A DNA stretch of 63,744 nucleotides, counting the filler, from Candidatus Lindowbacteria bacterium RIFCSPLOWO2_12_FULL_62_27 (GTDB lineage: Bacteria > Lindowbacteria > 2-12-FULL-62-27): NCBI GenBank assembly GCA_001784175.1. It is 3 parts of 3 records of this genome, joined end to end, with 100 filler letters (N's around TTAATTAATTAA, not from the genome) between each part and the next. Parts side by side here need not be neighbours in the genome. Positions count along the whole stretch, not along the records: positions 24,919 to 49,351 come from MFPR01000021.1; 2 more parts are not named here. One strand, written 5' to 3'. Every line of letters starts with the position of its first letter. Positions within the stretch are counted from its first letter, which is position 1. The notes beneath the pieces were generated by a model that worked only from the letters and a program-made list of their open reading frames with translations, ran no database searches and was not told the origin of the DNA. A program made the position numbers and the translations under genes. Shown piece by piece: positions 16,467 through 49,351 of the stretch.

Positions 16467-16467
16467 C

Positions 16468-16896
16468 CTACCGCACCAGATCCTCTTCGTAGATGACGTC
16501 GAACGCGAAGTCGTAGAACCCGCTTTTGCGCGCGACGGAGATGACCTTCATGATGGCGCCGTAGGGAACGCGGCGGTCGGCCTGGACGGCGACCGTGCGA
16601 GTTTTGAAGGGCACGGCGCGGAGCTTGGCGTAGAGCTGGTTGAGCGAGAGTTCCTCGCGGTCGAGATAGATTTTCTGGTTGTGGTCGATCCCGACGACGA
16701 TTTCGCGGACGGGCGTCTCCTCGGACGTGGCCGAGGGCGGGAGCTGAATGCCGAACTGCGAGGCGGCCTGTCCGAAGCTGGCGGAGAGCATGAAAAAGAC
16801 GATAAGCATGAGGAAGACGTCGATCATCGGCGTGGTATTCAGCATGAAGTCCTCCTGCTCGTCAAAGAGCTGGATGCGTCGCCGGTGCGGTTTCAC
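16468..16896 (-). CDS. exbD: ExbD/TolR family protein
   Basis: LNTTPMIDVFLMLIVFFML with the conserved Asp, and VQADRRVPYGAIMKVISVARKSG. Confidence 0.9.
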   Translation of the reverse strand: MKPHRRRIQLFDEQEDFMLNTTPMIDVFLMLIVFFMLSASFGQAASQFGIQLPPSATSEETPVREIVVGIDHNQKIYLDREELSLNQLYAKLRAVPFKTRTVAVQADRRVPYGAIMKVISVARKSGFYDFAFDVIYEEDLVR

Positions 16897-17606: not shown

Positions 17607-17625
17607 GTTGTCCAACCCTCCTCTT

Positions 17626-18597: not shown

Positions 18598-18631
18598 TTT
18601 CGTTCACTCCTTTCATGTTCTGACAGTCCAT

Positions 18632-25426: not shown

Positions 25427-25831
25427 TCACGGCACAATCAGGAGAGAATTCGTTTCGGTGCCCTCGACGTCGGTCCGGGGGTTGCCCTCGTCTTTTTTCC
25501 AATCGACGCCGTCGATCACGAATTTGTACTGATACCGTTGGCCGTGTTGAAGATAAACTTGGCTGCCGCCGCTGAATTCCCGAAAGGGGATAATCACACT
25601 CCATTTGCCATCGCCTAATTTTTTCATGAATATCCTTTTTTCGTCCGGCGAAGTTTTCCAATCGTTGAACGTGCCGGCCACTTGAACACTAAAGGCCACC
25701 GGATTGAAATACTGCAACAGCATGCCCGTCTCGACGGCCTGCGGCGGAGGCGGCCGGTCGCCGAGGAGGGCGCATCCCGCCATGACCAACAGAATCGACA
25801 TGCCCCTCATTGCGGTTCTCGCGCTCATCAT
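25427..25831 (-). CDS. Lipoprotein with one CBM48/AMPK-beta-like glycogen-binding domain
   Basis: Lipobox-like VMAGC, then VQVAGTFNDW...MKKLGDGKWSV...RYQYKFVIDG. Confidence 0.85.
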   Translation of the reverse strand: MMSARTAMRGMSILLVMAGCALLGDRPPPPQAVETGMLLQYFNPVAFSVQVAGTFNDWKTSPDEKRIFMKKLGDGKWSVIIPFREFSGGSQVYLQHGQRYQYKFVIDGVDWKKDEGNPRTDVEGTETNSLLIVP

Positions 25832-26775
25832 TCCACTTTTCCCTCTTTCCCCTCCATCTGCAAGGTCAGCGAAAGAAAAAGGCTTGAGCTGAAGTGCCCG
25901 ATCCGGAGCGCCGCAAAATCCACGCGCCCCGCCTCAAAAAGGTCGACGCCGAATCCAACCCGCAATTTCTCGTCTCCGTCCGGCGTATACGCATAGCCTC
26001 CGCGCACGTGAAACCGGCTCAAGAGGGTCGCCTCCAAACCGAACGTGGCCGTCATCCCGTCCTGAACGTTTCCGTGTTTCAGGGAGAAATTGAATGTCAC
26101 AAGACGCCGATAGCCGATGGACGGTTGAAACGCCATCGCCGCTTCCAATTCCGTCGGCAGCTTTTCCTTCTGAACGAACCCCATGTCCGGCCCGACATTT
26201 TTGAGCACGACGCCAAACCGCCACAGATTCCCGTGCCCGGTCTGCAGTCGGCACTGATATCCGAAATCCCCCGCGTAGCCGTTCGCCGACCGATGGTACA
26301 GTGTCCGGTTCAAGTATTTCACGTTGAAGCCCAAGTGATGACGGCCCGTCAGCCGCAGTCCAATTCCGGTCGTCAGAACGCCGTCGCCGACCACGAAGGT
26401 GCTCAACGGCCGGCCCACGTTGTCGCGCTCGGTTTCTTCCGCATGAAGATACGCTCCGCTGAACCCCCACGCGAGCGGACCCGCGGGAAACGCAAAGCCG
26501 AAGAATTCGTTTTGCATGCCGCTCAACCACTCGGTGTGCGTGGCCGTCATCTGCGTCCGGCCGACCGTCGCCAGTCCCGCGGGGTTGTAGTAGAGCCCGT
26601 GCACGTCGTCCACCAGCGCGCCAAATCCTCCGCCCATCGCCACCGCCCGCGCGCTTGGCTCGATCCGCAGAAAATCGGCGCCGCTGGACCGTTCGCCGGC
26701 GGTGGCGGAAGCCGCAGCAAGTAACGTGCAAGCGGCCGCGAGTACGATGAATTGCGACCTGTTACTAATATCCAT
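25828..26775 (-). CDS. PorV/PorQ (UPF0164) family barrel, paralog 2
   Basis: GADFLRIEPSARAVAMGG...GLYYNPAGL, with a signal peptide. Confidence 0.88.
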   Translation of the reverse strand: MDISNRSQFIVLAAACTLLAAASATAGERSSGADFLRIEPSARAVAMGGGFGALVDDVHGLYYNPAGLATVGRTQMTATHTEWLSGMQNEFFGFAFPAGPLAWGFSGAYLHAEETERDNVGRPLSTFVVGDGVLTTGIGLRLTGRHHLGFNVKYLNRTLYHRSANGYAGDFGYQCRLQTGHGNLWRFGVVLKNVGPDMGFVQKEKLPTELEAAMAFQPSIGYRRLVTFNFSLKHGNVQDGMTATFGLEATLLSRFHVRGGYAYTPDGDEKLRVGFGVDLFEAGRVDFAALRIGHFSSSLFLSLTLQMEGKEGKVE

Positions 26776-28898
26776 CAGAACCTGAGCTCCGCCTGGAGCG
26801 CGATAATGGATTCTACGTCAAGTCTTGCCGCAGCTTCACCCATATTGGCCAATGTGCCAAGCCCAAATCCAACGTCGGCGCCGACGTTGGCAATCGCCTC
26901 CGCCCCCCGTTTATAGAAATCATGCACCCGCCACGCCGCGCCGATTCTCTTGTCCTCATCGATGTAAGGATCCAGTCCATACCACAGGCGAATATGGAAG
27001 AGTTTTGACCATTCGTATTTGATGCCCGCAAATGGTTTGATCATCTCATCAGAAAATCCTGTTTTCAGGGGAGTAGATTCAGCGTCATAACTCACATAGA
27101 AGTACCGCATCCCCAAATCAAGATTCCAGCGGCTGCCCAATTTCCAGTTCAACCGCGACGATCCGATTCTTGTTTCAAATGATTCATCCAGGGTCCCGAA
27201 TCGCTTGAAACTGGTCAGGTCCATCCAGTCCAATTTGTTATGCCAGGTGACCGCACGGGTCAACCGCCACTCCACGTAAATACGCTCCGCAAGCGTCCTT
27301 TTCGCCCAAGCGACATCTGAAAACTGGTAGTGAGGCGCGCCCAACCGCTCACGGTAGAAGATATTTCCTTGTTTGAGATCCGACCGTTTGACATACCGGC
27401 TCTCAAGCTCGAATCCCCATTTTCGGTCCGGCCGGCGATTCAGCAACAGCCGGTGCGTGACCTCCATCCAGTCCGGGGATACCCGAACCAACTGACTGTC
27501 CGATGACACCGGCGCCGTTGTGAAGCTAAACGTCGTGGCCCGATAATTATGCAATTTTAAATTCAATTCGCTGGCCCAGGTTCGGCCCTCCACCACCGCT
27601 CCTGTCATCAGTGAAAGCCCGTCTGATTGATCTCCGAACACTCTCTCCTGACCCGCGGCGCCGGCGCCCGAAGTAACGGGCTGGCCATACGCGAAGACGA
27701 AGACCCGGCGCTGAAACCCGGTTGAATAGACCAAAGCGGCAGCGTCGTTCTGAGTCACGAGGACTTCCGTCATTAATTTCAAGCGGCCAAAGGTAAACGT
27801 GAAATCCATGGCGGTGCGGATACTTCTGTTCTGGCCGCCCGGTTTCACCTGGCGAAGCACGTCCATGTGATAGTATGAGCTGGACCCTGCGGGATATTCG
27901 ATGGATCCGGGCCCCAGGTCGGTGACCGTTTTCACTTCATTTGAAAAGGTCCCACTCGCCTTGATCCCGTTCTCTATCTGCCACTGAACGTAGCTGATCC
28001 CCCATGAAAGCCGTTTGCCGCCGCGTTTCAGCCGAAACCCCCACACATCTTCGTCGATCGGGCTCTGATCCAGACGGACCTTGTTGGAAAAAAAAGCATA
28101 TCCTTGCCAGGGGTCCCGCTTGAGATCGAAACTGAATCCCGTGGCATACCGGCCATACCGATGATAGAAGGGCCGCGCTTCACCCGTCAGGTAAATGTTG
28201 TCGTCAAAAATATAGTTGTGTTCATCCAGCAGTCGAAGGGGATCGTCAAAGTCGATCAGCCAGTGTGTCTCGAAGGGGCGGACCACCAGCGACCGGGTGT
28301 TGTCGCCGAGAGACAATTCCATGTAGGCTTCGTCCAGATTGAACCGGTCCGCGGACGCCGTATTTACATTGAGCTGCATCCAGACTTTCAGGAAATCCAT
28401 AAAACTCGGCCGGATGTCAAAGTTCAAATCGAGGTCGTTTCTGGGCGACTCCGAGCGGATCCTCCCACCCGGCCCGTCCACGTCGTCCGTGAGCAGATTA
28501 AAGAAGAGAAAATAGCCGTCCATGTCGATTTTCGAAACATTGGGAAATCGCAGGTACGGCTGCCGCGGATAAATGTACAGCTTCCCGTCTCGCCGGACCA
28601 GCGTCACCTTGAGATCGTCTCCGGTCATAAAGCTGCCGTCGATCACGTACTTGTACTTATAGGTCCCCACCGGCAGCGGCAACACGATTTCAAACTTTCC
28701 GTCTTTTTTTTCCATGGGCAGAGACTTATCGTTCCATCCATTGAACTCGCCGGCCAAATGGACCTTCTCGGCGAGCGCGTCCTCGAATTGAAACAGAACG
28801 CCATATTCTGTCATCTCGGGCGGAAGGGGCGACGCCCATCCCGTTACAGGCGCCAAAGCGCCGATCAAGCACAAGCAGACCCCAAGGAAAAGGTTCAT
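26775..28898 (-). CDS. Outer-membrane beta-barrel with N-terminal CBM48-like domain
   Basis: Signal peptide, then VLFQFED..AEKVHLAGEFNGW...GTYKYKYVIDG, then amphipathic strands ending IIALQAELRF. Confidence 0.8.
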   Translation of the reverse strand: MNLFLGVCLCLIGALAPVTGWASPLPPEMTEYGVLFQFEDALAEKVHLAGEFNGWNDKSLPMEKKDGKFEIVLPLPVGTYKYKYVIDGSFMTGDDLKVTLVRRDGKLYIYPRQPYLRFPNVSKIDMDGYFLFFNLLTDDVDGPGGRIRSESPRNDLDLNFDIRPSFMDFLKVWMQLNVNTASADRFNLDEAYMELSLGDNTRSLVVRPFETHWLIDFDDPLRLLDEHNYIFDDNIYLTGEARPFYHRYGRYATGFSFDLKRDPWQGYAFFSNKVRLDQSPIDEDVWGFRLKRGGKRLSWGISYVQWQIENGIKASGTFSNEVKTVTDLGPGSIEYPAGSSSYYHMDVLRQVKPGGQNRSIRTAMDFTFTFGRLKLMTEVLVTQNDAAALVYSTGFQRRVFVFAYGQPVTSGAGAAGQERVFGDQSDGLSLMTGAVVEGRTWASELNLKLHNYRATTFSFTTAPVSSDSQLVRVSPDWMEVTHRLLLNRRPDRKWGFELESRYVKRSDLKQGNIFYRERLGAPHYQFSDVAWAKRTLAERIYVEWRLTRAVTWHNKLDWMDLTSFKRFGTLDESFETRIGSSRLNWKLGSRWNLDLGMRYFYVSYDAESTPLKTGFSDEMIKPFAGIKYEWSKLFHIRLWYGLDPYIDEDKRIGAAWRVHDFYKRGAEAIANVGADVGFGLGTLANMGEAAARLDVESIIALQAELRF

Positions 28899-30373
28899 CT
28901 GAACTCCATTTCGAGCTTCAAAACGGCGATGCGGTCCGTATTGACGGAGTTGTCGGCAAAAGATCCGTCCCGGGTCAGATCATCGTTTCCGTGATCCTGG
29001 TTTCCATAAGCAAGAATCAGATTGTTGATCCCCCCGAAGGCGAACCAGAGCTGGCCATAGAGGCTGGTTCGGCTGAGGTCCGGCTGATATTCGAAGGCGT
29101 GAAGGACGCGTAGAATAAACTTGAGAGCAAATCTGTTCTTCTTTTTTTCCCGGTCCTCGTCCGTGATGAAATTGAAGGTGTTTTGAATGCCGAACAAATT
29201 CTTTCTGTACCGGTTGCTCATGTCCGTCACTCGGATATGTGCCTTGAATTCGTTGTTTTTCGCGAGCGATTCCAATTGCATGAACATCCCGGGTTTTCGA
29301 AGATCGTTATTCCACGGATCGTTCGACACTTCGTAATAAAACTTGGCCTTGTACCCCTTCTTGAATTCCGAGTAAACCTCGCCCTTCCGATAGGTGGTCC
29401 GCCGTTCTGGCCGGTTCAGAATGTTGAGCCGGGTTTCCCGCTTGATGTCCTGTTCATACGTGACGTTGACAAATTTTGCGGGAACTTCGTACGCAATTTC
29501 GTTTTTGACGCCGATCTCCCTATTTTGCGGGTTGTGGCCGAGATAATTTTCATATCCGCTCGCCCAGTTCCTGAATTTCGAACTCACCCTTAGACCGCCC
29601 CATCGCTCCGTCTTCGCATAGAGATTTTTCAGCTCAGTTTCAAACAGCGTCTCCGGTCCCGTGGTCGCATTGGTCGTGGAGGAAGCGGACCCGGCGGTGA
29701 CCCATTCGGCGTCGCCGAAACGCAGGGTCACATCCACGGCATGCACCCGATTGTATCCGTTGGACCAGCCTTTGAAGTTGGAGGTCGTTCCCAGCATCAG
29801 GCGATGCTTGTTCTCTTTCTTAAAAAAATTCCGGCCGGTCCGGAACGCATAAACGTCCGAATTCTCGAAAAGAAAGCGGGCCTGATAAAGATGCATCCAT
29901 GCGTCCCAGCCGGAAATATCCAGCCGAGTGCCGCGCAAGTCGGATTTCTGCTGCGTAATACCCAGCAGAGGCTCGCCCAGACTGAACCGCCCCTGGTTTT
30001 CAAACAGCAGCCATTCCGCCTTCTTCCCGCCGGCTTCTTTTCTAAAACTGACGTGGCCTTCCGCATACCGCAGAAGATCGTCGCCGGTATTTTTCGAGTT
30101 CAGACGCATCTTGGCGAAGATGGACACTCCGGGCGACGGGTCGGAAAAAAGCTTGCCCTCAAAATAACTCTGGGCGCCCCAGTTCGGCACGCCTTCGGCC
30201 TGTATGTTGGGCGAAAAAGCGCCCGCCTCCTGGTTGATGTCGGTTTGAAATTTATAGAAGGTCTCCATTTTGACAATCCGGGCGGAAGCCTCAAGAGGAA
30301 GTAAACAAATGACCACGTCTAAAAGCAGGAACACGATTCCAGTTCGCCGCGCCCCCCCTTGCCGCCCTGTCAC
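28895..30373 (-). CDS. Putative outer-membrane beta-barrel protein
   Basis: Signal peptide ending ASA-R, alternating polar/hydrophobic strands, and C-terminus IAVLKLEMEFR. It is coupled to the downstream barrel. Confidence 0.7.
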   Translation of the reverse strand: MTGRQGGARRTGIVFLLLDVVICLLPLEASARIVKMETFYKFQTDINQEAGAFSPNIQAEGVPNWGAQSYFEGKLFSDPSPGVSIFAKMRLNSKNTGDDLLRYAEGHVSFRKEAGGKKAEWLLFENQGRFSLGEPLLGITQQKSDLRGTRLDISGWDAWMHLYQARFLFENSDVYAFRTGRNFFKKENKHRLMLGTTSNFKGWSNGYNRVHAVDVTLRFGDAEWVTAGSASSTTNATTGPETLFETELKNLYAKTERWGGLRVSSKFRNWASGYENYLGHNPQNREIGVKNEIAYEVPAKFVNVTYEQDIKRETRLNILNRPERRTTYRKGEVYSEFKKGYKAKFYYEVSNDPWNNDLRKPGMFMQLESLAKNNEFKAHIRVTDMSNRYRKNLFGIQNTFNFITDEDREKKKNRFALKFILRVLHAFEYQPDLSRTSLYGQLWFAFGGINNLILAYGNQDHGNDDLTRDGSFADNSVNTDRIAVLKLEMEFR

Positions 30374-30412
30374 CCTGTCCCCCCTCTGCCGCCCTTGTCC
30401 CCTTGCGCGCCC

Positions 30413-31735
30413 TTACGAGGGTCGAAGGACGTTCAACTGCGCCAGGATTTTCCTTTCGACCAGCTTGCCCGCGTCCCGGAGGGCGGCCGGGACCGGTTTG
30501 GCGCCTTTCAGGGCCAGCTCCATTTCGGCGTTGACGATGGTTTCGAGCATGAAATAGTTGGGGATGTTGGGCCGCGGCCTGGCCGTCTGCATCTGTTCCA
30601 TGAAGGTGCGAAGGTACGGGTGCGCCTCCGGGGACACCCTCCGGATCGCTTCGAGGCGCACCGGGATCTGGTTCAGCGTCTTCGACCAGCGGATCTGATG
30701 GTCGTTGGATGAGACGTAATTCAAAAAGGCGAGCGCCAGTTTGGGATGTTTGGTCTTGCGGAAAATCACCATGTTTGTGCCGCCGACATTGGTCGATGTG
30801 CCCGCGGGGCCGGCCGGGATGAGGGCCACGCCATAATCGACGCCCGACTGCCGGAAGGTTTCGAGGCGCCAGGGGCCGCTGAGAATCATGGCATACTTGC
30901 CGTTCATGAATCCCTGGTCCGCGCCGATGGCGCCCGGTTTCCAAGCGCCCGCTTCGAGCTGGTGTTTCTCGTACAAATCCACTTTCAGTTGCAGCGCCGC
31001 GACGCCCGAGTCCTCCGCCAGCCGGTATTTCCAGACGCCCCGCACCAGTTCGATAATCGGCGCCGCGTAGGTGTTGTAAAAGGGCATGGTCCACCACAGG
31101 GAATTGTCCATCCCGAATCCGTACTCCTGCTGAGCCGTGTCGGTCAGCGCACGGCCATATCGAATGAAATCGTCCCATGTTTTCGGCGGCTCCAGCGGGT
31201 TCAATCCCGCCGCGGCCAGCTTCTGCGCCTTTTTCCTGAACACTTCGCGGTTCCAGTAGAGCGCGACGCACGTGGTCTGGTCCGGGATTCCGTACAGGTG
31301 CGTCACGTTGCCGATGGTGAGGAGATTCGATCCGATCGCGGCTTGCACAAATTTGTTCTTGAACGTTTCCAAGTCCGGCCCTTCGAAGCCGTCCGCTTTG
31401 TCGAGCGCCAGGAGCGCCTTGCCGTAGGCGAGGGTCGGCATGTCGCCGATGTCGACGCGGGCGATGTCGGGCGTCGTGTGGGTGAGGGCGGCGGTTTTGA
31501 GTTTGGACAAAAACCCGTCGAAGGGCACGCGCTGGATGTTCAGGCGGACTTTGACGCCGAACTCTTTTTCCGCAATCGGCACGAAATCCTCCGTGAGTTT
31601 GACGAACACGTTGTGCTCTTCCGTGTTGTAGGTTTCCCAGACCGTCAGGGTCACAGCGTCGTCGGAGACGGATGGGGAACGGCCACAGCCTGTCAAACAC
31701 AGACAGACGAGGAGCGACGAAACAAATATTTTCAT
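30413..31735 (-). CDS. Carbohydrate ABC transporter substrate-binding lipoprotein (MalE/SBP_bac_8-like)
   Basis: Lipobox LTGC, plus VTLTVWE, LYGIPDQTTCVALYWNREVF, PPKTWDDF and FMNGKYAMILSGPW. Confidence 0.92.
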   Translation of the reverse strand: MKIFVSSLLVCLCLTGCGRSPSVSDDAVTLTVWETYNTEEHNVFVKLTEDFVPIAEKEFGVKVRLNIQRVPFDGFLSKLKTAALTHTTPDIARVDIGDMPTLAYGKALLALDKADGFEGPDLETFKNKFVQAAIGSNLLTIGNVTHLYGIPDQTTCVALYWNREVFRKKAQKLAAAGLNPLEPPKTWDDFIRYGRALTDTAQQEYGFGMDNSLWWTMPFYNTYAAPIIELVRGVWKYRLAEDSGVAALQLKVDLYEKHQLEAGAWKPGAIGADQGFMNGKYAMILSGPWRLETFRQSGVDYGVALIPAGPAGTSTNVGGTNMVIFRKTKHPKLALAFLNYVSSNDHQIRWSKTLNQIPVRLEAIRRVSPEAHPYLRTFMEQMQTARPRPNIPNYFMLETIVNAEMELALKGAKPVPAALRDAGKLVERKILAQLNVLRPS

Positions 31736-33108
31736 CCTTTCACCGCCCCCTGGGTCATCCCTTCAATGAAATATCTCTGCGCGAACACGAAGAGGACGGC
31801 GACAGGGACGATCGAGAAACACGCGCCGGCCATCTGCAGTTCCCACTGTGTCAGGTACTGGCCCTTGAAGAGCGCCAGGCCGACCGGCAGGGTCCGGAGG
31901 GCGCTGTCGGGCGTGTTGACGACGAGCTGCCAGAGGAAATTGGACCACTGGCCGAGGAAGGTCAGCAAAAAGAGGGTGACCATGATCGGCATCGACAGCG
32001 GGATGACGATTTTGGTCAGCTCGTGATACTCGTTCGCGCCGTCCATCCGGGCGGCCTCGAAGAGCGAGTGCGGGATGGTTTCGATGTACTGCCGCATGAG
32101 GAATATCCCGAAGACGTTGGCGAGGTGCGGCACGATCATGCCGAGATAGGTGTTGATGCCGAAGATCCGCATTTCCTGAAGCGTCGTGCCGAACAGCGGC
32201 ATCTTGCCGATGATGTTGACCAGCGCGAACTGCGGGACGAAAAAGATCATCCCCGGCACCATCATGACGGACAACAGGAGATAAAAAAGCTTGTCCTTCC
32301 ATAAGAAATCCTTCACCGCGAACACGTAACCCGCCAGCGTGCAGAGGATGACCGTCAAGAGGCCGCTCACGGTCCCCACCACCATGCTGTTGATGAAAAA
32401 CCGGCCGAACGGGAAATCGGGCGACCCGGCGATCGCCGCGAAATTGCCCAAAGTATAGATCGACTTCAGGCCCGCCCAGAACGAGTTTCTTACGGAAAAC
32501 CGGTACGTGACGTTCCCGCCGCCAGCCGCCAGCATCTCCGCGGACCAGCGGCTCTCAGCGTCTTTGACCAGCGGAATTTCCTTGTCATCGACCAGCGCCG
32601 TCACCGCGATCGCGGCGGGGTCCTGGTAGACGAACCGGACGCGCCCGCCCTCGTATTCGGTCCGGTCCGCCGACGGCGGGATGTCCAGCGCCTGGTTGGG
32701 CCCATCCATCCACTGGCCGTCCACCACGAATTTGTATTCGTGTTTGCCCACCGGCAGGCGCAGCGTCTTCTGAAACACGCCGCCGCCGGTGGTCGTCAGC
32801 GCCTCCGCGCCCGCGTTCCAGCCGTTGAACGTGCCCGCGACGGTAACGCGTTCGGCGCCAGGCGCGGTGTGAAAAAACGTGTGGGCCTGAAACGCGCCCG
32901 CGATTTCGCCCGGCGCCAGCGCCGCCGGTCCCGTCGTTCGCCGCAGTTCCGGCAGAAACTCGTTCTTGAGCGCCGTCCCCTGTTCCTTGAAGGCCGTGAG
33001 CAGCATCCAGAACAGCGGCATCAGCACGACCAGCGACCCCACGGTCAGCGCGACGTAGAGAAGGAGATTCCTCAGAATCAAGAACACCCAATCCGACCAC
33101 GAGCGCAT
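31732..33108 (-). CDS. Carbohydrate ABC permease (MalG-like) with periplasmic CBM48-like insertion
   Basis: EAA motif IPHSLFEAARMDGA. The insertion TAPGAERVTVAGTFNGW...GKHEYKFVVDG lies after the first TM segment. Confidence 0.9.
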   Translation of the reverse strand: MRSWSDWVFLILRNLLLYVALTVGSLVVLMPLFWMLLTAFKEQGTALKNEFLPELRRTTGPAALAPGEIAGAFQAHTFFHTAPGAERVTVAGTFNGWNAGAEALTTTGGGVFQKTLRLPVGKHEYKFVVDGQWMDGPNQALDIPPSADRTEYEGGRVRFVYQDPAAIAVTALVDDKEIPLVKDAESRWSAEMLAAGGGNVTYRFSVRNSFWAGLKSIYTLGNFAAIAGSPDFPFGRFFINSMVVGTVSGLLTVILCTLAGYVFAVKDFLWKDKLFYLLLSVMMVPGMIFFVPQFALVNIIGKMPLFGTTLQEMRIFGINTYLGMIVPHLANVFGIFLMRQYIETIPHSLFEAARMDGANEYHELTKIVIPLSMPIMVTLFLLTFLGQWSNFLWQLVVNTPDSALRTLPVGLALFKGQYLTQWELQMAGACFSIVPVAVLFVFAQRYFIEGMTQGAVKG

Positions 33109-33109
33109 C

Positions 33110-34036: not shown

Positions 34037-34038
34037 GC

Positions 34039-40704: not shown

Positions 40705-40715
40705 CGTCTCCGCTC

Positions 40716-41675
40716 CTAAAACTTGAACAGCAGCGAGAATTGGTGCGCGCTGCCGAAGGTGTCGTAGGGCTTGAACGCGTAATCGACAACCAGCCTCACG
40801 ATCCGGATGCCCATGCCGACCGAGTAGCCCTTCTCGTCCGACGTGTTGTCCGGCCGCGCCGTATACCCGGCCCGGAACGCGAGGAAATGCACGACCCAGC
40901 CCTCGACCCCCAGGTTGAAGTATGGCTGATTGTCGGTCGGAAATACCAGATCGGTCGCGACATTCAGCCGGCCAAGGAACGGGCGGAAATTGACGCCGAA
41001 CGTAAAGCGCTCCGGCAGACGCTCCCGGACGAAATCGAACGGCGAGGCGCGGCCGATGTTCGCAGCCGTAAACGCGATGTCAATCGGGAAGTCCGGTGAC
41101 TTCCACTTGAGGCCGAAATCAACCGCCAACCCCGTCGCGCTCTCCACATCGATCTTTTCCTTGAAGAACTTGAGCGTGAATCCATATCGCATCGGCATGC
41201 CCCAGAGGCCAAAGCGGTTCGCGTACCCCAGCCCGAAGAGATAGTCGCTGGCGGTGAACGTCCCGACCTTCTGGAAAAACGGCGCGCCCTTCACGGCGAT
41301 GGTCTTGTCGATGTCGCCCATCGTCAGGGCGGTGACGTACGTCCCGAGCGTGCCGAACCGGCGCGGCAACGGATGCGCGTAGGCGAACCCGCTGTAATTG
41401 ATGTCCTCGATGAATTTCAGGTGCGACACCAGAATCTCCGCGCGTTTGAGTTCCTGCAGCCCGGCCGGGTTCCAGTACAATGCGCTCACGTCGTCCGCCC
41501 GCGCCGTAAACGCGCCGCCCATGCCGACGGCGCGCGACCCCAGCCCGAGTTTCAGGAACTGGAACGCCCGCGTGCCGGCTTTGGAGCTGGTCGCGTCTGC
41601 AGACTGCGCGGCCGCGAGCACGGCGACCACCGCCGCCACCAGCGACACGCGCATCGTCAGACGCCGGGCCTTCAT
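40716..41675 (-). CDS. PorV/PorQ (UPF0164) family barrel, paralog 3
   Basis: AFQFLKLGLGSRAVGMGG...ALYWNPAGL and C-terminus VDYAFKPYDTFGSAHQFSLLFKF. ATG 41675 overlaps the upstream stop. Confidence 0.9.
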   Translation of the reverse strand: MKARRLTMRVSLVAAVVAVLAAAQSADATSSKAGTRAFQFLKLGLGSRAVGMGGAFTARADDVSALYWNPAGLQELKRAEILVSHLKFIEDINYSGFAYAHPLPRRFGTLGTYVTALTMGDIDKTIAVKGAPFFQKVGTFTASDYLFGLGYANRFGLWGMPMRYGFTLKFFKEKIDVESATGLAVDFGLKWKSPDFPIDIAFTAANIGRASPFDFVRERLPERFTFGVNFRPFLGRLNVATDLVFPTDNQPYFNLGVEGWVVHFLAFRAGYTARPDNTSDEKGYSVGMGIRIVRLVVDYAFKPYDTFGSAHQFSLLFKF

Positions 41676-44380
41676 CGCACCACCGCCACTTTGCCGGTCT
41701 TGTTCGACGTCGCGCTCTTGGCGTGGAAGAGGTAGACGCCGCTGGCCGCCGGCCGGCCGTGGTCGTTGGTCAGGTCCCAGATCATCCGCGTGGCGACACC
41801 GGTCGTGCCGTACTCGCTCGCATCGTTCGGATCGAGCGTGCGGACGAGTTCGCCGGTGATGGTGTAGATTTTGATGAACTCGATATCTGTTGGAATGTTC
41901 AGGAACGTGATGCCCGGCCGGCCGTCGCCGTACGGATCGCCGCGCTGAGCGAAATCGCGGTTCGGATAGCACGGGTTCGGGAACGCCACCATGTCGTTCA
42001 GGTTGTTCGGCGAGCCGGCCAGGGCCATGACCTGGAAGATGGAGAACTTGAACCGCGGCGCGCCGACGATGTTGGCGGCCGGGCTGGTCTTGGAGCCCGG
42101 CACCAGATCCCAGCGCATGGTCGTTTCGTTCAGAACGTACAGCGCGTATCCGACGACCGGCAGGCCGGCGCGAGCGGCGTATTCCTGATGTAAAGACGTG
42201 AACGGGATGGTGACCCGGACCGGCGTGTCGGCGAAGACGACCGCCTCGCCGGTCGTCTTCGACTTGACGTCGATGATGTAAATCAGCGAGTCCGTGTCGC
42301 CAGTCGAGTTTTCGGAGAGCGTCCACTCCAGCGGGTTCGTGAGCTGCGCGGCTTCGGCGGCCTTCAGCATCGCGCACACCTGCGCCATCGCCGTGTCGGT
42401 CGACTCCGCATCGATTGCCTCGACCAAGCTGGTGACCCGCACGAACGAGTTGGCCGGGATCGTTCCCGCCGGGAACATGATCATGACGCTCGTGTCCTGC
42501 CCCTCGGCCTTCCGGCGCGCCGTCGCGCCGCCGGCGGCCGGTATTCCTTCCTGGGCCGAGGAATAGTCGCTCTCGAGGAGGGTGTGGGTGTCGTAGGCCG
42601 TGATCTTGTAGTAGTACGTGACGCCGTTCGTCAGGCCGTCGTCAAGATACTCCGGATAGGCAGACGCCGGGACGGTGTCGATCAGCGGGAAGAGGCCGCT
42701 CAGGGAAGTGTCGCGATAGATGTTGTAGCTGTTGACAATGAAATCGGCGGACGGCCGCCAGGACAGGAGCACCTTCGTGTCCATGCTGATGGCGGTGATC
42801 GACACCGGCGTCCTCGGCGGCGCGAATCCCGCCGCCTCCCACACGTCCACCACCCGCATCATGTCCTGTCCCATGTTCGCGGAGATCGTCACCAGCCGGT
42901 TGCCGGTGACTTCGAGCGTGCGGTCCGAGCCGCTTTCGTAGTCGCCGTTCTTGACGCCATCGTTCGTCTTGTCGATGATGAACTTGTATTTGTGCGTGCC
43001 GTTCGGCATATTCCGGGTCAGCCGCCAGGTCTTCCGGTTGTCCACCGTCAGCTTGTAAAAGTCGTCAGCCTTGCTGCCCAGCCAGTCGTTGTTCGTCCAA
43101 GGGTCGAACTCGCCCGTGATCCAGACACCCACGGCCTGCGTGTCCGGGCCGTACACGAACTCGTTCGGAATGTCCGACAGCGCAACGCCGAGATCGGACC
43201 CGCCCGGAATCCAATCGCCGGCGGAGGCGCCGGTGTGGATCGCGAAGTACTTGTACGTCTGCCATCCCTTGATCGACTTGACCAGCCGAAAGACGCTGTC
43301 GGACTCGAGTTTCATCTTCCAGTTGTCGTCGATCCCGAAACTGTTGAACGACCCGCGGACGTAGACCGACGAGACGTTCGTCGCGTTCAGGCCCCACGTC
43401 GAGGGGTCGAACCGGAACAGCATCGGGTGCTCGTCGGTCTGGCCCTCCCACTCCTGCTTCGATGTGCCGGGATTCTTGACGTACTTGTACTGCAGTTTCT
43501 GCCCGCCCTGCATCACTTGCGTTCCGGACCAGATACCGGTCTGGATTTCGGTCAGCGGCGCCTCGTACGGTTTCCAAGTCAGCGGCGACTGGTTGCCGCC
43601 CAATCCCATCCCGAAGACCGGCCGGCCGTTCAGAGCGATGTCCTGACGCATATCCACCACGAACTGCACCAGCACCTTGCCCTGCGGCGTGTCGGTCACG
43701 ACCGCCGACGTGCTGGTGTACGGGCCCGGCGGCGCCGGCGTGTCCGTGGCGGGCTCGCCCGGCGTATCGTAGGCGTCGACCGCGGTGATGATGAAATGGT
43801 AAACGGTCCCGACATTCAGTCCCCGAATCGTGAAGGACGTCGTGGTCCCCTGGATAAGCTGCGTGTCAGCTTGCGTCCAGGGTGGACCTGCGGCGCCGGC
43901 GCGGTAATAGACGTGATAGCCCCCGCCGTAAACCACGTCCCAAGTACTCGGAACCGGCATCGCCCAGGTCAGTTTGACCTCTCCGTCCCCCACAATGGAC
44001 GTCGCGACAGATACCGGCGCCTGCGGCGTGTCCGCCCAGTTGCCCGGAACGTAGATGGTGTCGACGCCCGATGGCACCGTGAACTCGCGGTAGCCCGAAG
44101 ACGTCGCGAAGTTCGGTTCGATCTGGGTGTCGGTGGCGCTGAGGACTACACCGTACTTGTACTGGATCGTCGAGCCCGGAAAGAGCTTGACCTCGTACCG
44201 GTACAGGCCATTCGAATCAGGCCCGCTCATCGCCTTTGTCTCCCAGCCACTATTGAACTGCCCGATCAGGGCCTTCTTCAGATCCGCCCACTTCGTGTCG
44301 GCGCCCGCATGGGCGTCGCCCGGGGACAGGCAGAGGAACAGCCCGACCAGGACTGCGGAGACGATCGGCCTCAGTCTCAT
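41672..44380 (-). CDS. Secreted multi-CBM (CBM20/CBM48-like) + Fn3 protein with FlgD-Ig/T9SS-like CTD
   Basis: Signal peptide ending AHA, CBM motifs (VQFVVDM, QYKYVK, VYVRGSFN, HKYKFIID) and Fn3 (VLLSW...YNIYR...TYYYKITAYD). It ends AFPNP...IKIYTITGELVRTL...WDLTNDHGRPAASGVYLF...GKVAVVR. Confidence 0.88.
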   Translation of the reverse strand: MRLRPIVSAVLVGLFLCLSPGDAHAGADTKWADLKKALIGQFNSGWETKAMSGPDSNGLYRYEVKLFPGSTIQYKYGVVLSATDTQIEPNFATSSGYREFTVPSGVDTIYVPGNWADTPQAPVSVATSIVGDGEVKLTWAMPVPSTWDVVYGGGYHVYYRAGAAGPPWTQADTQLIQGTTTSFTIRGLNVGTVYHFIITAVDAYDTPGEPATDTPAPPGPYTSTSAVVTDTPQGKVLVQFVVDMRQDIALNGRPVFGMGLGGNQSPLTWKPYEAPLTEIQTGIWSGTQVMQGGQKLQYKYVKNPGTSKQEWEGQTDEHPMLFRFDPSTWGLNATNVSSVYVRGSFNSFGIDDNWKMKLESDSVFRLVKSIKGWQTYKYFAIHTGASAGDWIPGGSDLGVALSDIPNEFVYGPDTQAVGVWITGEFDPWTNNDWLGSKADDFYKLTVDNRKTWRLTRNMPNGTHKYKFIIDKTNDGVKNGDYESGSDRTLEVTGNRLVTISANMGQDMMRVVDVWEAAGFAPPRTPVSITAISMDTKVLLSWRPSADFIVNSYNIYRDTSLSGLFPLIDTVPASAYPEYLDDGLTNGVTYYYKITAYDTHTLLESDYSSAQEGIPAAGGATARRKAEGQDTSVMIMFPAGTIPANSFVRVTSLVEAIDAESTDTAMAQVCAMLKAAEAAQLTNPLEWTLSENSTGDTDSLIYIIDVKSKTTGEAVVFADTPVRVTIPFTSLHQEYAARAGLPVVGYALYVLNETTMRWDLVPGSKTSPAANIVGAPRFKFSIFQVMALAGSPNNLNDMVAFPNPCYPNRDFAQRGDPYGDGRPGITFLNIPTDIEFIKIYTITGELVRTLDPNDASEYGTTGVATRMIWDLTNDHGRPAASGVYLFHAKSATSNKTGKVAVVR

Positions 44381-44419
44381 GCCGAACCGTCCGTCCTGTC
44401 GATCAAGTCCGCGCCTCCT

Positions 44420-45610
44420 CTACGAAGCGGACTTGCGCTGGGCGATGACCGCCCGCGTCTTGATCGGCTTGCCCTGCGGCACGCCGTCCACATAGGGCGT
44501 CAGGTAGATCGTTCCCTCCATGGCGCCGTCCGAAAACACGACTTGCGGGTCGAAATACTCGACGAGAAAAATCACCGTCACCGCCACACCCCGCGTCCAC
44601 CGGGCCGCGCCGCCGCTGAAATTCTGGTCCGCCGTGTCGTTCTGGAATCCGTAGGCGTCCACCCACAGCACCGTGTACACGAAAGAGTCGCCGTTCGGCG
44701 TCGCTGGGATCGACGTGTCCGTGAATGTCACCGGAACGTGGTAGTACCCGCCTCCGTAGGCTGCCCGGTTCGGCGAGTACAGCGTGTCGCCCATCACCTG
44801 GTTCACGACCGTGTCCTCGAACCGCAGGTGCGACGGCATCGTCGTATCCGAACTCCATCCCGACGGCAGCCGGGCCCGCAGAATCCGGAATCCGTACGGC
44901 GTGTACGTCCCCGTATCGAACTCCTTCGCGCCCTCCACCGTAGGGACGATCTCGTCCCCGGTCGTGATCTTCAGTTGCCAACTGATCTTCACGGCCGTGT
45001 CCGCTGTCTGAACGGCCGACACGCCGTAGTTGTTGTTGCCGCCGAGATCCGTCGTGTCGTTATTTCCGCTGGAACTGACATCCGTCGTTCCCAGATACTG
45101 CGCCAAGTCCGGGTTCTGAACCGTCAGCCATGAATCCCCGGACACCGGCGTTCCCTGCTTGCCCATCACGTCCTGGTCGCCAAACCGGTTGTAGAACACG
45201 TACCCCTCCGACGCGCTTGCCGGCACCGTGATCGTCCGCTGGGTGCTCTGGTCCTGCGCCCGGGGTCCGCCGATCGTCGTACTCTTCCACCCCGACGCCG
45301 AGTCGAAAATCGGAATCCGGTACTCGAACCAGTACGAGTAATTGGCGCCGGCCACCACCACCGCCGTGCATACCCACGATCCGTCCCCCACAGCCCGCAT
45401 TGGAATCGCGCACGACCGCACCAATCCTAAATGCCCCTGGACCGTCTCCGCGTCCACCGGACACGGATACGTGCCGGTCTCGAAGACGATCGCCTTCGAA
45501 AAATCCCCATAGCCTCCCCTCTGATACCCGGCCACCGTCATCGCCTCGGCGCTCACCGCCAGAAGCCCGACGATCGCCATCACCAGAAACACTGCTCCTG
45601 TTCCTCTCAT
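44420..45610 (-). CDS. Secreted protein of unknown family, tandem paralog 1 (CBM-like + Fn3-like elements)
   Basis: RBS GAGGTGA, signal peptide ending AEA, and strong similarity to the three upstream paralogs. Confidence 0.85.
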   Translation of the reverse strand: MRGTGAVFLVMAIVGLLAVSAEAMTVAGYQRGGYGDFSKAIVFETGTYPCPVDAETVQGHLGLVRSCAIPMRAVGDGSWVCTAVVVAGANYSYWFEYRIPIFDSASGWKSTTIGGPRAQDQSTQRTITVPASASEGYVFYNRFGDQDVMGKQGTPVSGDSWLTVQNPDLAQYLGTTDVSSSGNNDTTDLGGNNNYGVSAVQTADTAVKISWQLKITTGDEIVPTVEGAKEFDTGTYTPYGFRILRARLPSGWSSDTTMPSHLRFEDTVVNQVMGDTLYSPNRAAYGGGYYHVPVTFTDTSIPATPNGDSFVYTVLWVDAYGFQNDTADQNFSGGAARWTRGVAVTVIFLVEYFDPQVVFSDGAMEGTIYLTPYVDGVPQGKPIKTRAVIAQRKSAS

Positions 45611-45713
45611 ATCGATCTCACCTCTATGGACCGCGCGACGCTCGCGCAGCCCCAAACTCCGGACGACGACACGCGTCGTCCGCACTCCGATCTATCCTTC
45701 ACCCTCCGCCTCG

Positions 45714-45934
45714 CCCCCCTCTCCCCCGCAGGGGGAGAGGGTTGGGGTGAGGGGGTTATCGGCCCTTCGCTCTCCCCGACGTTCCTCCCTAACTCCCCGG
45801 AGGGGACCTCCAACGCTTCCCCTCCGGAGAGGGAGGGAAGGGAGGAACGCCGGGAAGAGCACGGGCCAAAGCCGTACACTTCCTGCTCACGTATGAGTCC
45901 TTCAGTCCTCGGTCCTCAGACCTCGGACCTCGTT
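45714..45934 (-). repeat. Composite intergenic repeat, copy 1 (C/G palindrome + 92-nt hairpin + conserved ~60-nt block)
   Basis: Near-identical sequence at 48786-49022 and a partial copy at 47321-47436. Confidence 0.85.
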
Positions 45935-45986
45935 CCCTTACTCCTTACTCAGCACTCATCACCTCACAATCCGTAGGCCTCAGCCC

Positions 45987-47219
45987 TTACGACGACTTCC
46001 GCACCGCCAGATACACCGGCGTCCAGAACGAATACGCAGGCTGCGGGATCCCTTCCACCCACGGCGTCACGCGCACTCGCCCCTCCGTCGCGCCGTTCGG
46101 AAACACCACGTTCGCGTCGAAATGCTCCACCAAAAACAGAACCTCGATCCGGCCGCCGCGCACCCACTCCGCCGCGCCGCCCACGAAGTTCTGGTCCACT
46201 GTGTCGTTCTGGAATCCGTAGGCGTCCACCCACAGCACCGTGTAGATGAACGAGTCGCCGTTCGGCGTCGCCGGGATCGACGTGTCCGTGAACGTCGTCG
46301 CCGCGCTGTAGTAGGACCCGCCCGGCCGGTACGGCGAATAGAACGTGTCGCCCATCACCTGGTTCACGACGGTGTCCTCGAACTTCAGGAGCGTGGGCAT
46401 CGTCGTGTCCGAACTCCAGCCCGACGGCAACCGCGCGCGCAGAATCCGGAATCCGTACGGGTTGTACGCCGACTGCGTGTCGAACTCCTTCGCGCCCTCC
46501 ACCGACGGCACGAGTTCGTCCCCGGTCGTGAGCTTCAGTTGCCAACTGATCTTGACCGCGGTGTCCGACGTCTGAGTGGCCGACACGCCGTAGTTGTTGT
46601 TGCCGCCCAAATCGGTCGTGTCGCCGTTTCCGCTCGAACTTACGTCCGTCGTTCCCAGATACTGCGCCAAATCCGGGTTCTCCTTCGTCAGCCAGGAATC
46701 CCCGGATACCGGCGTGCCCTGCTTGCCCGTCACGTCCGGGTCGCCAAACCGGTTGTAGAACACATAGCCGTTCGACGCGCTCGCCGGCACCGTGATCGTC
46801 CGCTGCTGGCTCTGGTCCTGCGCGCGGTTCTGGTCGTTGCCCGCGTTCTTCCACGCGTACGTCTTCTGCGTGTCCGTATACACCGTCGTCGAATCGAAAA
46901 CCGGAATCCGGTACTCGAACCAGTACGCGTAGGTCGCGCCGGCCACGAGGATCGCCGTACACGTCCACGACCCATCCCCCACCGGGCGCATGGGAAGCGC
47001 GCACGACCGGGCCGCGTTGCTGCCCGCAACGGTCTCGGCATTCGACGGACACGGATACGTGCCCGTTTCGAACACAATCGCCTTCGAAAAATCCGCAAAG
47101 CCTCCCTTCTGATACCCGGCCACCGTCATCGCCTCGGCGCGGTCTCCAACCACCGCCAGAAGCCCGACGATCGCCACGGCAAACACCGCCGTCGCTAACA
47201 TCCAACTCGCTGCTTTCAT
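45987..47219 (-). CDS. Secreted protein, tandem paralog 2
   Basis: MKAASWMLATAVFAVAIVGL signal peptide, and highly similar to paralog 3. Confidence 0.88.
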   Translation of the reverse strand: MKAASWMLATAVFAVAIVGLLAVVGDRAEAMTVAGYQKGGFADFSKAIVFETGTYPCPSNAETVAGSNAARSCALPMRPVGDGSWTCTAILVAGATYAYWFEYRIPVFDSTTVYTDTQKTYAWKNAGNDQNRAQDQSQQRTITVPASASNGYVFYNRFGDPDVTGKQGTPVSGDSWLTKENPDLAQYLGTTDVSSSGNGDTTDLGGNNNYGVSATQTSDTAVKISWQLKLTTGDELVPSVEGAKEFDTQSAYNPYGFRILRARLPSGWSSDTTMPTLLKFEDTVVNQVMGDTFYSPYRPGGSYYSAATTFTDTSIPATPNGDSFIYTVLWVDAYGFQNDTVDQNFVGGAAEWVRGGRIEVLFLVEHFDANVVFPNGATEGRVRVTPWVEGIPQPAYSFWTPVYLAVRKSS

Positions 47220-47320
47220 CTGCCTTTCACCTCACTCTGTTTTCACGGACCGCCTTTCGCTGTCCGCCCGTCGCTTCAACTCAACTCAACTCAACACATC
47301 TATGCTCACCCTCCACCGCT

Positions 47321-47436
47321 CCCCCCTCTCCCCGCAGGGGGAGAGGGTTGGGGTGAGGGGGTTCTCGCGCTCCTGTACACTTCCTGCCTCACATATGAGT
47401 CCGTCAGTCCGCGGTCCTTCAGACCCGGACCTCGTT
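47321..47436 (-). repeat. Composite intergenic repeat, copy 2 (lacks the long hairpin)
   Basis: The palindrome at 47321-47361 and the block GTACAC...GGACCTCGTT at 47375-47436 are shared with copies 1 and 3. Confidence 0.8.
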
Positions 47437-47463
47437 CACCTCGCCATCCTCATGCCTCAGGCC

Positions 47464-48702
47464 TTACGACGACTTCCGCACCGCCAGATAGACCGGCGTC
47501 CAGAACGAATACGCAGGCTGCGGAATGCCCCCAACCCACGGCGTCACGCGCACACGGCCTTCCGTCGCGCCGTCCGGAAACACCACGCTTGCGTCGAAAT
47601 GCTCCACCAGAAACAACACATCGATCCGGCCGCCCCGCACCCACTCGGCCGACCCGCCCGTGAAATTCTGGTCCCCTGTGTCGTTCTGGAATCCGTAGGC
47701 GTCCACCCACAGCACCGTGTAGATGAACGAGTCGCCGTTCGGCGTCGCCGGGATCGACGTGTCCGTGAACGTCGTCGCTGCGCTGTAGTAGGACCCGCCC
47801 GGCCGGGACGGCGAATAGAGCGTGTCGCCCATCACCTTGTTCACCACCGTGTCCTCAAACGTCAGGTGGGCCGGCATCGTCGTGTCCGAACTCCAGCCCG
47901 CAGGCAGCCGCGCCCGCAGGATGCGGAACCCGTACGGGTTGTACGCCGACTGCGTGTCGAACTCCTTCGCGCCCTCCACCGACGGCACGATGTCGTCGCT
48001 GCCCGTGATCTTCAGTTGCCAGCTGATTTTCACTTCTGAATCCGAAACCTGGGTCGCCGACACGCCGTAGTTGTTGTTGCCGCCCAAATCGGTCGTGTCG
48101 TTGTTTCCGCTCGAACTCACATCCGCCGTCCCGAGGTACTGCGCCAAGTCCGGGTTCGCGATCGACAACATCGTGTCCACCCAGTCCGTGTCCGACGATC
48201 CCTGCTTGCCCGTCACGTCCGGGTCGCCGAACCGGTTGTAGAACACATAGCCGTTCGACGCGCTGGCCGGCACCGTGATCGTCCGCTGCGTGTTCTGATC
48301 CTGCGAACGGGTTGAACCGGCACCTACGGTCATGTTCCTCCACACGTACGTCTTCTGCGTGTCCGTATAGACCGTCGTCGAGTCGAACAGCGGAATCCGA
48401 TACTCGAACCAGTACGCATAGGTGGCGCCGGCAACCACGGTCGCCGTGCACACCCACGAGCCGTCTCCCACGGGGCGCATCGGAACTGCGCACGTCCGTA
48501 CGTTGTTGTTGCTCCCCTGGATCGTCTCCGCGTTCACCGGACACGGATACGTCGTCGTGTCAAACACAATCGCCTTCGAAAAATCGGCAAACCCTCCCTT
48601 CTGATACCCGGCCACCGTCATGGCGTCGGCGCTTATCACCCAAAGCCCGACGATCGCCACGGCAAACACCGCCGTCGCCAACATCCAACTCGCTGCTTTC
48701 AT
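47464..48702 (-). CDS. Secreted protein, tandem paralog 3
   Basis: Same signal peptide and C-terminus (PQPAYSFWTPVYLAVRKSS) as paralog 2. Confidence 0.88.
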   Translation of the reverse strand: MKAASWMLATAVFAVAIVGLWVISADAMTVAGYQKGGFADFSKAIVFDTTTYPCPVNAETIQGSNNNVRTCAVPMRPVGDGSWVCTATVVAGATYAYWFEYRIPLFDSTTVYTDTQKTYVWRNMTVGAGSTRSQDQNTQRTITVPASASNGYVFYNRFGDPDVTGKQGSSDTDWVDTMLSIANPDLAQYLGTADVSSSGNNDTTDLGGNNNYGVSATQVSDSEVKISWQLKITGSDDIVPSVEGAKEFDTQSAYNPYGFRILRARLPAGWSSDTTMPAHLTFEDTVVNKVMGDTLYSPSRPGGSYYSAATTFTDTSIPATPNGDSFIYTVLWVDAYGFQNDTGDQNFTGGSAEWVRGGRIDVLFLVEHFDASVVFPDGATEGRVRVTPWVGGIPQPAYSFWTPVYLAVRKSS

Positions 48703-48785
48703 CTGCCTTTCACCTCACTCTATTGTCGCGGACCGCTTCCAGATGTCCGCGCTTCGCTTCAACTCATCTATACTCACCCTCTCCT

Positions 48786-49022
48786 CCCCCCTCTCCCCCG
48801 CAGGGGAGAGGGTTGGGGTGAGGGGGTTCTCCCGCGCTCTCCCCGACGTTCCTCCCTAACTCCCCGGAGGGGACCTCCAACCCTTCCCCTCCGGANNNNN
48901 NNNNNNCCCCTCCGGAGAGGGAGGGAAGGGAGGAACGCCGGGAAGAGCACAGGCCAAAGCCGTACACTCCCTGCTCACGTATGAGTCCGTCAGTCCGCGG
49001 TCCTCAGACCTCGGACCTCGTT
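48786..49022 (-). repeat. Composite intergenic repeat, copy 3
   Basis: Matches copy 1 across a short N gap. Confidence 0.8.
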
Positions 49023-49088
49023 TCCTTACTCCCTACTCACCACGCCTCACTCAGTACTCATCACCTCTCCATCCTCATGCCTCAGGCC

Positions 49089-49351
49089 TTACGACGTCTT
49101 CCTCACCGCCATGTACACCGGCGTCCAGAACGAATACGCAGGCTGCGGCACGCCCGACACCCACGGCGTCACCCGCACTCGCCCCTCCGACGCGCCATCC
49201 GGAAACACCACGCCCGGCTCGAAATGCTCCACCAAAAACAACACGTCCGTCCGGTTCCCCCGCACCCATTCCGCCGACCCGCCGCTGAAGTTCTGCGCCG
49301 CCGAGTCGTTCGTGTTCCCGTACGCGTCCACCCACAACACCGTGTACACGT
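49089..49351 (-). CDS. Secreted protein, tandem paralog 4 (only the C-terminus is present)
   Basis: YTVLWVDAYG...VLFLVEHF...PQPAYSFWTPVYMAVRKTS, cut by the contig end. Confidence 0.85.

Follow-up and report, generated by a model that had tools for sequence, protein, structure and literature searches.

How polysaccharides are taken up by diderm candidate phyla that have neither SusC/SusD nor LamB is an open question, and it is raised directly by a locus in the genome of Candidatus Lindowbacteria bacterium RIFCSPLOWO2_12_FULL_62_27. The stretch of DNA analyzed (63,744 nucleotides, hereafter the window) is a concatenation of contigs of this genome in which positions 24919-49351 represent contig C21, and the locus spans most of that contig. 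It encodes carbohydrate-binding modules (CBMs) of the CBM48/CBM20 type, an ATP-binding cassette (ABC) importer and several outer-membrane barrels. Our analyses support that this is a real, conserved and apparently undescribed variant of a polysaccharide utilization locus (PUL) with a new family of barrels. The window is an unusually complete example of it, since a single operon joins the barrel pair and the importer to the predicted base of an amylase chain. The question can thereby be approached through a concrete conserved gene set (29 genomes from 20 families in a sample of 401).

A conserved pair of outer-membrane barrels

Contig C21 has 16 complete, co-oriented genes, all on the minus strand, and the 3' end of a 17th at position 49351. 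Between 44380 and 25427, 13 genes have the close spacing of an operon: ten of their 12 junctions overlap or are separated by at most 2 nt, and the other two measure 11 and 39 nt. This agrees with an earlier, sequence-only reading of the stretch, which had counted at least 17 co-oriented genes, 13 of them tightly packed. In the order of transcription, genes for three paralogues (C, B and A) are followed by those for a 902-aa secreted protein with a C-terminal domain (CTD), a barrel of the PorV/PorQ family (PorV1), a six-CBM48 protein and MalK, and then by those for two membrane-GAF-GGDEF proteins, MalF, a CBM48-bearing MalG, MalE, the barrels B2 and B1, a second PorV-like barrel (PorV2) and a CBM48 lipoprotein. 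Domain calls on the window proteins were made with Pfam and NCBIfam profile searches.

The core of the locus is formed by B2 (492 aa; 28895-30373), which has no CBM, and B1 (707 aa; 26775-28898), in which an N-terminal CBM48 precedes a predicted β-barrel of ~22 strands. The two are paralogues (HHalign 97%, E 5e-11) and represent an unnamed family of outer-membrane β-barrels, as neither matched a barrel family in Pfam or NCBIfam, and their profiles returned nothing under E 0.02 when compared with the PDB sequences. The closest named relative of B1 (L040, 51% identical) is also from Candidatus Lindowbacteria. Structural look-alikes of B2 in the Atlas, at TM 0.84, were all unnamed, and the Atlas added further unnamed clusters of look-alikes, with Fidelibacterota and Cloacimonadota foremost. 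The predicted model of B1 had ~22 strands at a pLDDT of 56.6, with the last strand not formed. A fold search with it found generic barrel neighbors only (best Z 14.3, rmsd 5.0, 348 aligned residues, identity at most 12%), including the LamB-type 1mpr (Z 12.7, 8% identity), although a family missing from the neighbor list may still be related to B1. The earlier proposal of novel barrels thus stands for B1, but it had not listed B2, and it had left the paralogues at 44420-48702 unexplained.

To determine how widely the pair occurs, profiles of the barrels alone were run over 401 genomes; nine of the 29 genomes found to have B2 had been used to train the profiles and 20 had not. B2 was found in 29 genomes and B1 in 31, and in all 29 B2-bearing genomes the next gene downstream, on the strand of B2, was B1. 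These genomes span 20 families, with kin among them not being independent. Neighborhoods were counted in the fetched DNA, which was about 20 kb per genome (more for six), was often cut by contig ends, and had a subset of its neighboring genes scanned. B1 had an N-terminal CBM48, in one to four copies, in 28 of the 29 genomes. A small CBM48 protein lay directly behind B1 in 23 and elsewhere in the region in three more; its representative here is the single-CBM48 lipoprotein (134 aa; 25427-25831), which has a conserved RL/PPP segment after its lipobox Cys and is likely a partner of B1. Within three genes of the barrel pair there was a PorV-like gene in 20 genomes, Mal-type ABC genes were also near it in 20, and GH13, GH57 or a debranching enzyme was near it in 15. 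When a barrel profile built from three sequences was searched exhaustively, 30 clusters were obtained, and with the query and two fragments left out, 26 of 27 matched AMPK1_CBM (25 over the cut-off); source names included Endomicrobiia, Krumholzibacteriia, Eisenbacteria, Spirochaetota and Hydrogenedentota. A word-index homologue search with B1 had found only 5-6 close relatives, and a pattern scan of genome contigs two loci; both understated the range of B1, since the profiles later showed a wider spread. B2 and the CBM48-capped B1 are therefore the conserved core of the locus, while the graft on MalG and the cyclases vary.

The genome is 94% complete, and within it the models for TonB-dependent receptors (PF00593; 3 of 14 controls gave a match), SusD (PF07980) and LamB (PF02264) had zero matches. 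B1 and B2 themselves matched neither the receptor nor the Plug model. The sequence-only reading had likewise recognized no SusC/SusD or LamB, and its central claim, of an alpha-glucan system of neither the Sus nor the LamB kind in which novel barrels are combined with an ABC importer, is supported as a conserved system by the invariant pairing of the barrels.

Binding modules, importer and hydrolases

Five gene products of the window have CBM48/CBM20-like modules in Pfam, in accordance with the earlier assignment of such modules to a CTD protein, a six-CBM protein, MalG, an outer-membrane barrel and a lipoprotein. CBM48/AMPK1_CBM matches were found in the lipoprotein (E 1e-6), B1 (2e-12), MalG (7e-13) and, six times, the 864-aa protein; the 902-aa CTD protein matched CBM20, AMPK1_CBM, fn3 and FlgD_ig. 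The module of B1 also matches the glycogen-binding domain of AMPK beta (E 3.5e-7). In the available part of PMC4032982, the glycogen-binding residues of AMPK are given as W100, K126 and W133. The first two are present throughout the nine CBM48 modules, which belong to B1, MalG, the lipoprotein and the six-CBM protein. W133 is present in six of the nine; it is F in B1 and missing from two modules of the six-CBM protein, four of whose six modules retain both binding Trp. Greater degeneracy is seen in the modules of the 902-aa protein. Based on family matches and retained binding residues, the CBM48 modules are predicted to bind glycogen or starch.

Where these modules lie is important for understanding their role. 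The six-CBM48 protein (864 aa; 38110-40704), with six AMPK1_CBM stretches, is predicted to be periplasmic because it has a signal peptide and no CTD. The CBM of MalG is likewise placed in the periplasm because it lies between the first transmembrane segment (TM1) and the next helix. In the model of B1, the CBM precedes strand 1 and is on the short-turn side. By general barrel topology, all three proteins would thus have their CBMs in the periplasm, a prediction that draws on the weak B1 model (pLDDT 56.6). We also noted an ~80 nt repeated DNA element, in frame, at 39722-39812 and 40246-40335 in the Pro/Ala-rich linker of the six-CBM gene, with further copies on several other contigs. Other combinations of CBM48 were seen elsewhere: a PorV-like barrel with a C-terminal CBM48 lies behind an anchor-like CTD protein in G059 (L037:3131-4879), and in relatives CBM48 is fused to a thioredoxin-like domain (L029:7864-8922), a metallo-beta-lactamase-fold domain (L030:8541-9866) or a metallophosphoesterase (L035:10991-13006).

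All of the parts of a CUT1 ABC importer are present: a MalE-like solute-binding lipoprotein (30413-31735; SBP_bac_1 E 3e-34), MalF-like (33110-34036) and MalG-like (31732-33108) permeases, and a MalK/UgpC-type ATPase (36988-38109). In the MalG-like permease TM1 is at residues 15-33 and the next transmembrane segment at 247, and the loop after TM1 contains the CBM48 (AMPK1_CBM at 81-139) and a degenerate second module. This graft covers the CBM region in four of 12 genomes with this MalG subfamily. CBM48-MalG fusions also occur in Planctomycetota, Acidobacteriota and Dependentiae records, and in five loci with no barrel match in the fetched DNA (L048, L050, L052, L067 and L111).

The two membrane-GAF-GGDEF proteins both pass TIGR00254 and have intact GG(D/E)EF motifs, so the two diguanylate cyclases of the sequence-only reading are confirmed by family and motif. 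The first (35489-36991) has GGEEF and no RxxD I-site, and the second (34039-35496) has GGEEI and an RxxD I-site. The same division, one member with RxxD and the other without, was present in all eight cyclase pairs seen (three of them closely related), which hints at a cyclase heterodimer. Such a pair was near the barrels in four of the 29 genomes. An Rfam search of the window and of positions 1-39000 of contig C31 returned zero matches, and so no riboswitch. The cyclase pair is thus an optional regulatory module, and nothing ties the cyclases to uptake.

No GH13 or GH57 is present on contig C21, as had been observed earlier, but that absence does not extend to the genome, which has 14 GH13 matches and six GH57 matches over cut-off. 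Several are on C31, and C3 has a GH13 and a pullulanase. C31 begins with the 5' end of a gene for one of the paralogues found upstream of the 902-aa protein, and C21 ends with the 3' end of one; because both contigs break inside the same paralogue array, C31 probably continues C21. A contig over C31 1-95 had 2.4-3.4 times the depth of its neighbor, a weak hint of collapsed copies. The gene run of C31 goes on with a further paralogue and a subtilase that has a CTD, then with two CBM20/fn3 proteins, a 4,187-aa GH13 protein and a three-CBM48 protein, followed by GH66, two CBM48-GH13 proteins with signal peptides, and GlgB. The earlier reading had advised looking for hydrolase genes beyond the break at 49351, and this probable continuation has GH13 and GH66. 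A hydrolase-free system was rejected given the GH13, GH66 and GH57 genes of the genome.

Two other regions of the genome have related contents. At G000:C6:121221-146063 (L021, L022), the gene of an 8,280-aa CTD protein, whose domains include GH13 and two GH57, comes after a LacI gene and before PorV. A second glycan locus of like layout, at G000:C44:27754-56531 (L144, L145), encodes CTD cargo with CBM11-like domains, a PorV-like protein, a 1,182-aa barrel with N-terminal CBM11-like domains, a giant CTD protein, PorV, a MalE-F fusion, MalG, GH35, MalK and two cyclases. With zero profile similarity to B1 or B2, the 1,182-aa barrel was not called a homologue of either.

PorV barrels and a predicted strand-linked chain

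Both PorV-like proteins, PorV1 (319 aa; 40716-41675; 159 bits) and PorV2 (315 aa; 25828-26775; 129 bits), exceed the NF033709 cut-off of 90, as expected from the earlier description of two PorV barrels, and both are under the equivalog cut-offs for PorV and PorQ. The start of PorV1 overlaps the stop of the gene for the 902-aa CTD protein, its likely partner. Across the genome 14 of 17 PorV-like genes directly follow a CTD gene, and for that reason the PorV barrels are read as likely holders of secreted CTD cargo. A role as sugar pores, which the sequence-only reading had given them, was rejected on the same grounds. Elsewhere in the window (12518-24811, minus strand), a CTD giant and PorV are followed by TolQ/ExbB-like and TonB-like genes and a 1,016-aa gene, a possible energizing module beside genes resembling type IX secretion system (T9SS) genes. 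An open frame of about 22,269 aa with a CTD-like tail is present at G000:C2:43824-110633.

The genes upstream of PorV1 suggested to us how a surface amylase might be attached. Predicted stalk subunits C (412 aa; 47464-48702), B (410 aa; 45987-47219; 83% identical to C) and A (396 aa; 44420-45610; the last before the anchor) are joined by the 3' end of a fourth paralogue (49088-49351), which is cut by the contig end and is 77% identical to residues 325-410 of subunit B. None of the subunits matched a Pfam or NCBIfam family. Subunit C has a signal peptide, a CBM20-like domain without its first strand, an fn3-like domain, and a C-terminal orphan strand and cap. When aligned with fused repeats, the subunits proved to have an N-terminal CBM20-like domain without the first strand that complete internal copies have and, after the fn3-like domain, a hydrophobic strand as their end. 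The 902-aa protein (41672-44380), the predicted base of the chain, is laid out as an N-terminal CBM20-like domain without strand A, fn3, a complete CBM20-like domain in which two CBM48-like inserts are nested, fn3, and a T9SS-like CTD. The 4,187-aa GH13 protein of C31 ends in a donor-like strand, has no CTD, and keeps the catalytic D, E and D. Taken together, the three paralogues and the CTD protein look like the stalk and base of a strand-linked chain that would carry this giant GH13.

Support for a donor-strand chain comes from a fused copy in the same genome, as a sequence permutation. This 9,098-aa CTD protein (G000:C6:153747-181043, L149) contains four subunit copies, 57-63% identical, in which the strand (ITVIF) directly precedes each N-domain, whereas in the free subunits it is at the C-terminus. 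GH13 giants that have no CTD and end in a strand of this kind lie beside the cassette in five genomes of other families (G135, G083, G244, G337 and G186), all with the D-E-D triad, and in G135, G337 and G186 the giant, subunits, CTD protein and PorV are together on one contig. Homologues of the 902-aa protein with an incomplete N-domain and a CTD, followed by PorV, occur in those three genomes and in L060; in L037, the homologue's CTD is followed by a PorV-like barrel. With one query, no stalk subunit was found in G002, G003, G059 or G186. In several lineages a subtilase (S8) gene is either among the arrayed subunit genes or immediately after the barrel cassette (L019:1811-3334; L139, L140, L142, L167 and L169), and the subtilase could process the donor-strand caps.

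A model for uptake, its rivals and known systems

We consider it fairly probable that the locus functions in uptake of starch or glycogen. A series of C-terminal donor strands would link the 4,187-aa GH13, head to tail, with the paralogous subunits and through them with the 902-aa CTD protein, for which a T9SS-like export route and retention by PorV1 are proposed. The displayed amylase, together with other CTD enzymes, would then cut alpha-glucan outside the cell. The outer-membrane step would be performed by the paralogous barrels B2 and CBM48-capped B1 with the CBM48 lipoprotein, in place of SusC/SusD or LamB, and maltodextrins would cross B1/B2 most likely by facilitated diffusion. In the periplasm, the CBM48 modules of B1, the lipoprotein and the six-CBM protein may bind maltodextrins and act as a sink. 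Based on what is known of their families, the signal-peptide GH13, GH66 and pullulanase enzymes without a CTD would trim the maltodextrins there, and MalE-MalF-MalG(CBM48)-MalK would import the products. A broader claim, somewhat less likely than not, is that the locus represents a third general design for glycan uptake in diderms. That design would combine a heterodimeric twin-barrel channel and a periplasmic CBM48 trap with a giant amylase whose strand-complemented stalk has one gene per link; a minimal T9SS would export the whole as a single chain, by way of one CTD-bearing base.

Several observations weigh against the uptake model. Gene content, domains, operon packing, conservation and co-occurrence were established directly, and every functional step is drawn from association. 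The fetched DNA was without Mal genes in nine of the 29 genomes and without a hydrolase in 14, often where contig ends cut it. The strand number of B1 and the periplasmic side of its CBM follow from the turn pattern and general barrel topology in a weak model. The join of C21 and C31 is not bridged by public contigs, although in G135, G337 and G186 a single contig carries the corresponding genes. The two TonB_C matches over cut-off in the genome mean that passive transport is not established. The match of the SprA-like protein (1,825 aa) is weak (E 1e-19 over part of the model; 69 bits against a cut-off of 200). In addition, for the giants of G083, G244 and G390 no CTD protein could be clearly recognized as the anchor, and the predicted fold of one fused repeat (pLDDT 43.5) was too poor to show a donor strand.

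The frequent presence of PorV-like genes within three genes of the pair, usually behind CTD cargo, would also fit B1 and B2 being scaffold or secretion-accessory barrels that display or gate such cargo, with maltodextrins entering by an unrelated porin. The six-CBM protein weakly matches the T9SS plug model (sub-threshold, 53.9 of 100 bits), so CBM48-like domains could act as periplasmic plugs. We consider this explanation unlikely, since the CBM of B1 keeps its sugar-binding residues across phyla, and the barrel pair is single-copy in this genome despite its 36 CTD genes and 17 PorV-like genes, which ties it to the alpha-glucan locus and not to secretion in general. Rather less probable is an energized, TonB-dependent-like B1, with CBM48 replacing the plug, as a functional analogue of SusC with active uptake. 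This would be consistent with the TonB_C matches, the ~22 predicted strands and the presence of TonB-dependent transporters among the top structural neighbors of B1. However, those neighbors are generic ones (Z no higher than 14.3, rmsd no lower than 5, identity no more than 12%), there was no TonB_dep_Rec or Plug match, and no TonB gene was recognized in the cassette neighborhoods examined.

The sequence-only reading had envisaged a CBM relay in every layer, from surface to cytoplasm, through all four barrels and under c-di-GMP control. CBMs on five gene products, translational coupling of the cyclases within the operon, and a MalK-cyclase-cyclase block that is also in the C44 glycan locus are in its favor. 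Nevertheless, most CBMs, those of B1, MalG and the six-CBM protein among them, are predicted to be periplasmic, the MalG graft and the cyclases vary by lineage, and PorV genes are behind CTD genes in 14 of 17 cases. CBMs in every layer as the defining design, PorV barrels in the sugar path and c-di-GMP control are accordingly not retained, and the relay as a whole appears very improbable. Export, in which the barrels would secrete alpha-glucan made or remodeled in the periplasm under c-di-GMP control, as AlgE or Wzi do, has a chance that is slimmer still. The cyclase pair, GlgB next to the locus on C31, and AlgE and Wzi among the generic fold neighbors would suit it. In contrast, the ABC system has a solute-binding protein and is hence an importer, and the scanned neighbors are hydrolases, the only glycosyltransferase-family match over cut-off being a trehalose-phosphate synthase near G302.

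Our literature searches, in which subscription papers and supplements were outside coverage, found no description of the barrel pair or the chain, and the available part of PMC11495043 does not describe the barrel cassette. If the uptake model is true, B1/B2 would be a new family of outer-membrane transporters, and starch or glycogen use would become predictable for uncultured lineages. If the chain is real, it would be a new way to build surface enzyme complexes, in which CTD-less giants piggy-back through a T9SS-like route.

In the Sus system and other PULs of Bacteroidota, an amylase at the surface, proteins that bind glycan, a barrel in the outer membrane and hydrolases of the periplasm are coupled in one locus. 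The locus described here would likewise couple a surface amylase with glycan-binding proteins, a barrel and periplasmic hydrolases, and hydrolases are co-located with binding proteins, as alpha-glucan enzymes lie near the pair in 15 of 29 genomes and on C31 here. It differs in having no SusC-type TonB receptor or SusD, with a barrel pair of another family, in the fusion of CBM48 to a barrel, in the use of an ABC importer, and in an amylase that is predicted to be on a CTD-anchored chain and is not a lipoprotein. The LamB-MalEFGK system of enterobacteria combines a CUT1 ABC importer with passive entry and a periplasmic amylase. A CUT1-family importer with MalE/F/G/K-like parts, likely passive entry and a predicted periplasmic amylase are features here also; however, there is no LamB, CBM48 is in MalG, and there are extra barrels, PorV and CTD cargo. 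MalE, MalF, MalG and MalK are also below the E. coli equivalog cut-offs. A standard Mal system was rejected.

Other likenesses concern single components. MalG1/MalG2 of Thermotogales have a hydrophilic insert of about 500 aa between TM1 and TM2 with no known homologue at that time, according to the available part of PMC2246101; the insert here is in the same position, but is about 200 aa with a recognizable CBM48. PorV/PorQ-family barrels behind CTD cargo and an SprA-like protein in the genome resemble the T9SS, which the accessible portion of PMC11285876 limits to listed FCB phyla. This organism is outside those phyla, its SprA match is weak, and it has many PorV paralogues, each beside one cargo. 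Lastly, the available text of PMC13655056 describes the type V pili of Porphyromonas gingivalis as head-to-tail polymers with tip, stalk and anchor, formed through a C-terminal donor strand by protease-mediated strand exchange. The chain predicted here would similarly have a C-terminal donor strand and a tip, stalk and anchor, with a subtilase gene in the array. Its CBM20-like/fn3 subunits are unrelated to those pilins, with no homology shown; they have Sec signal peptides with no lipobox Cys at the signal-peptide end, unlike the lipoprotein pilins of the FimA/Mfa1 family, and there is a separate gene for each link. In place of the parts of a pilus, an enzyme would form the tip and a T9SS-like CTD protein the base.

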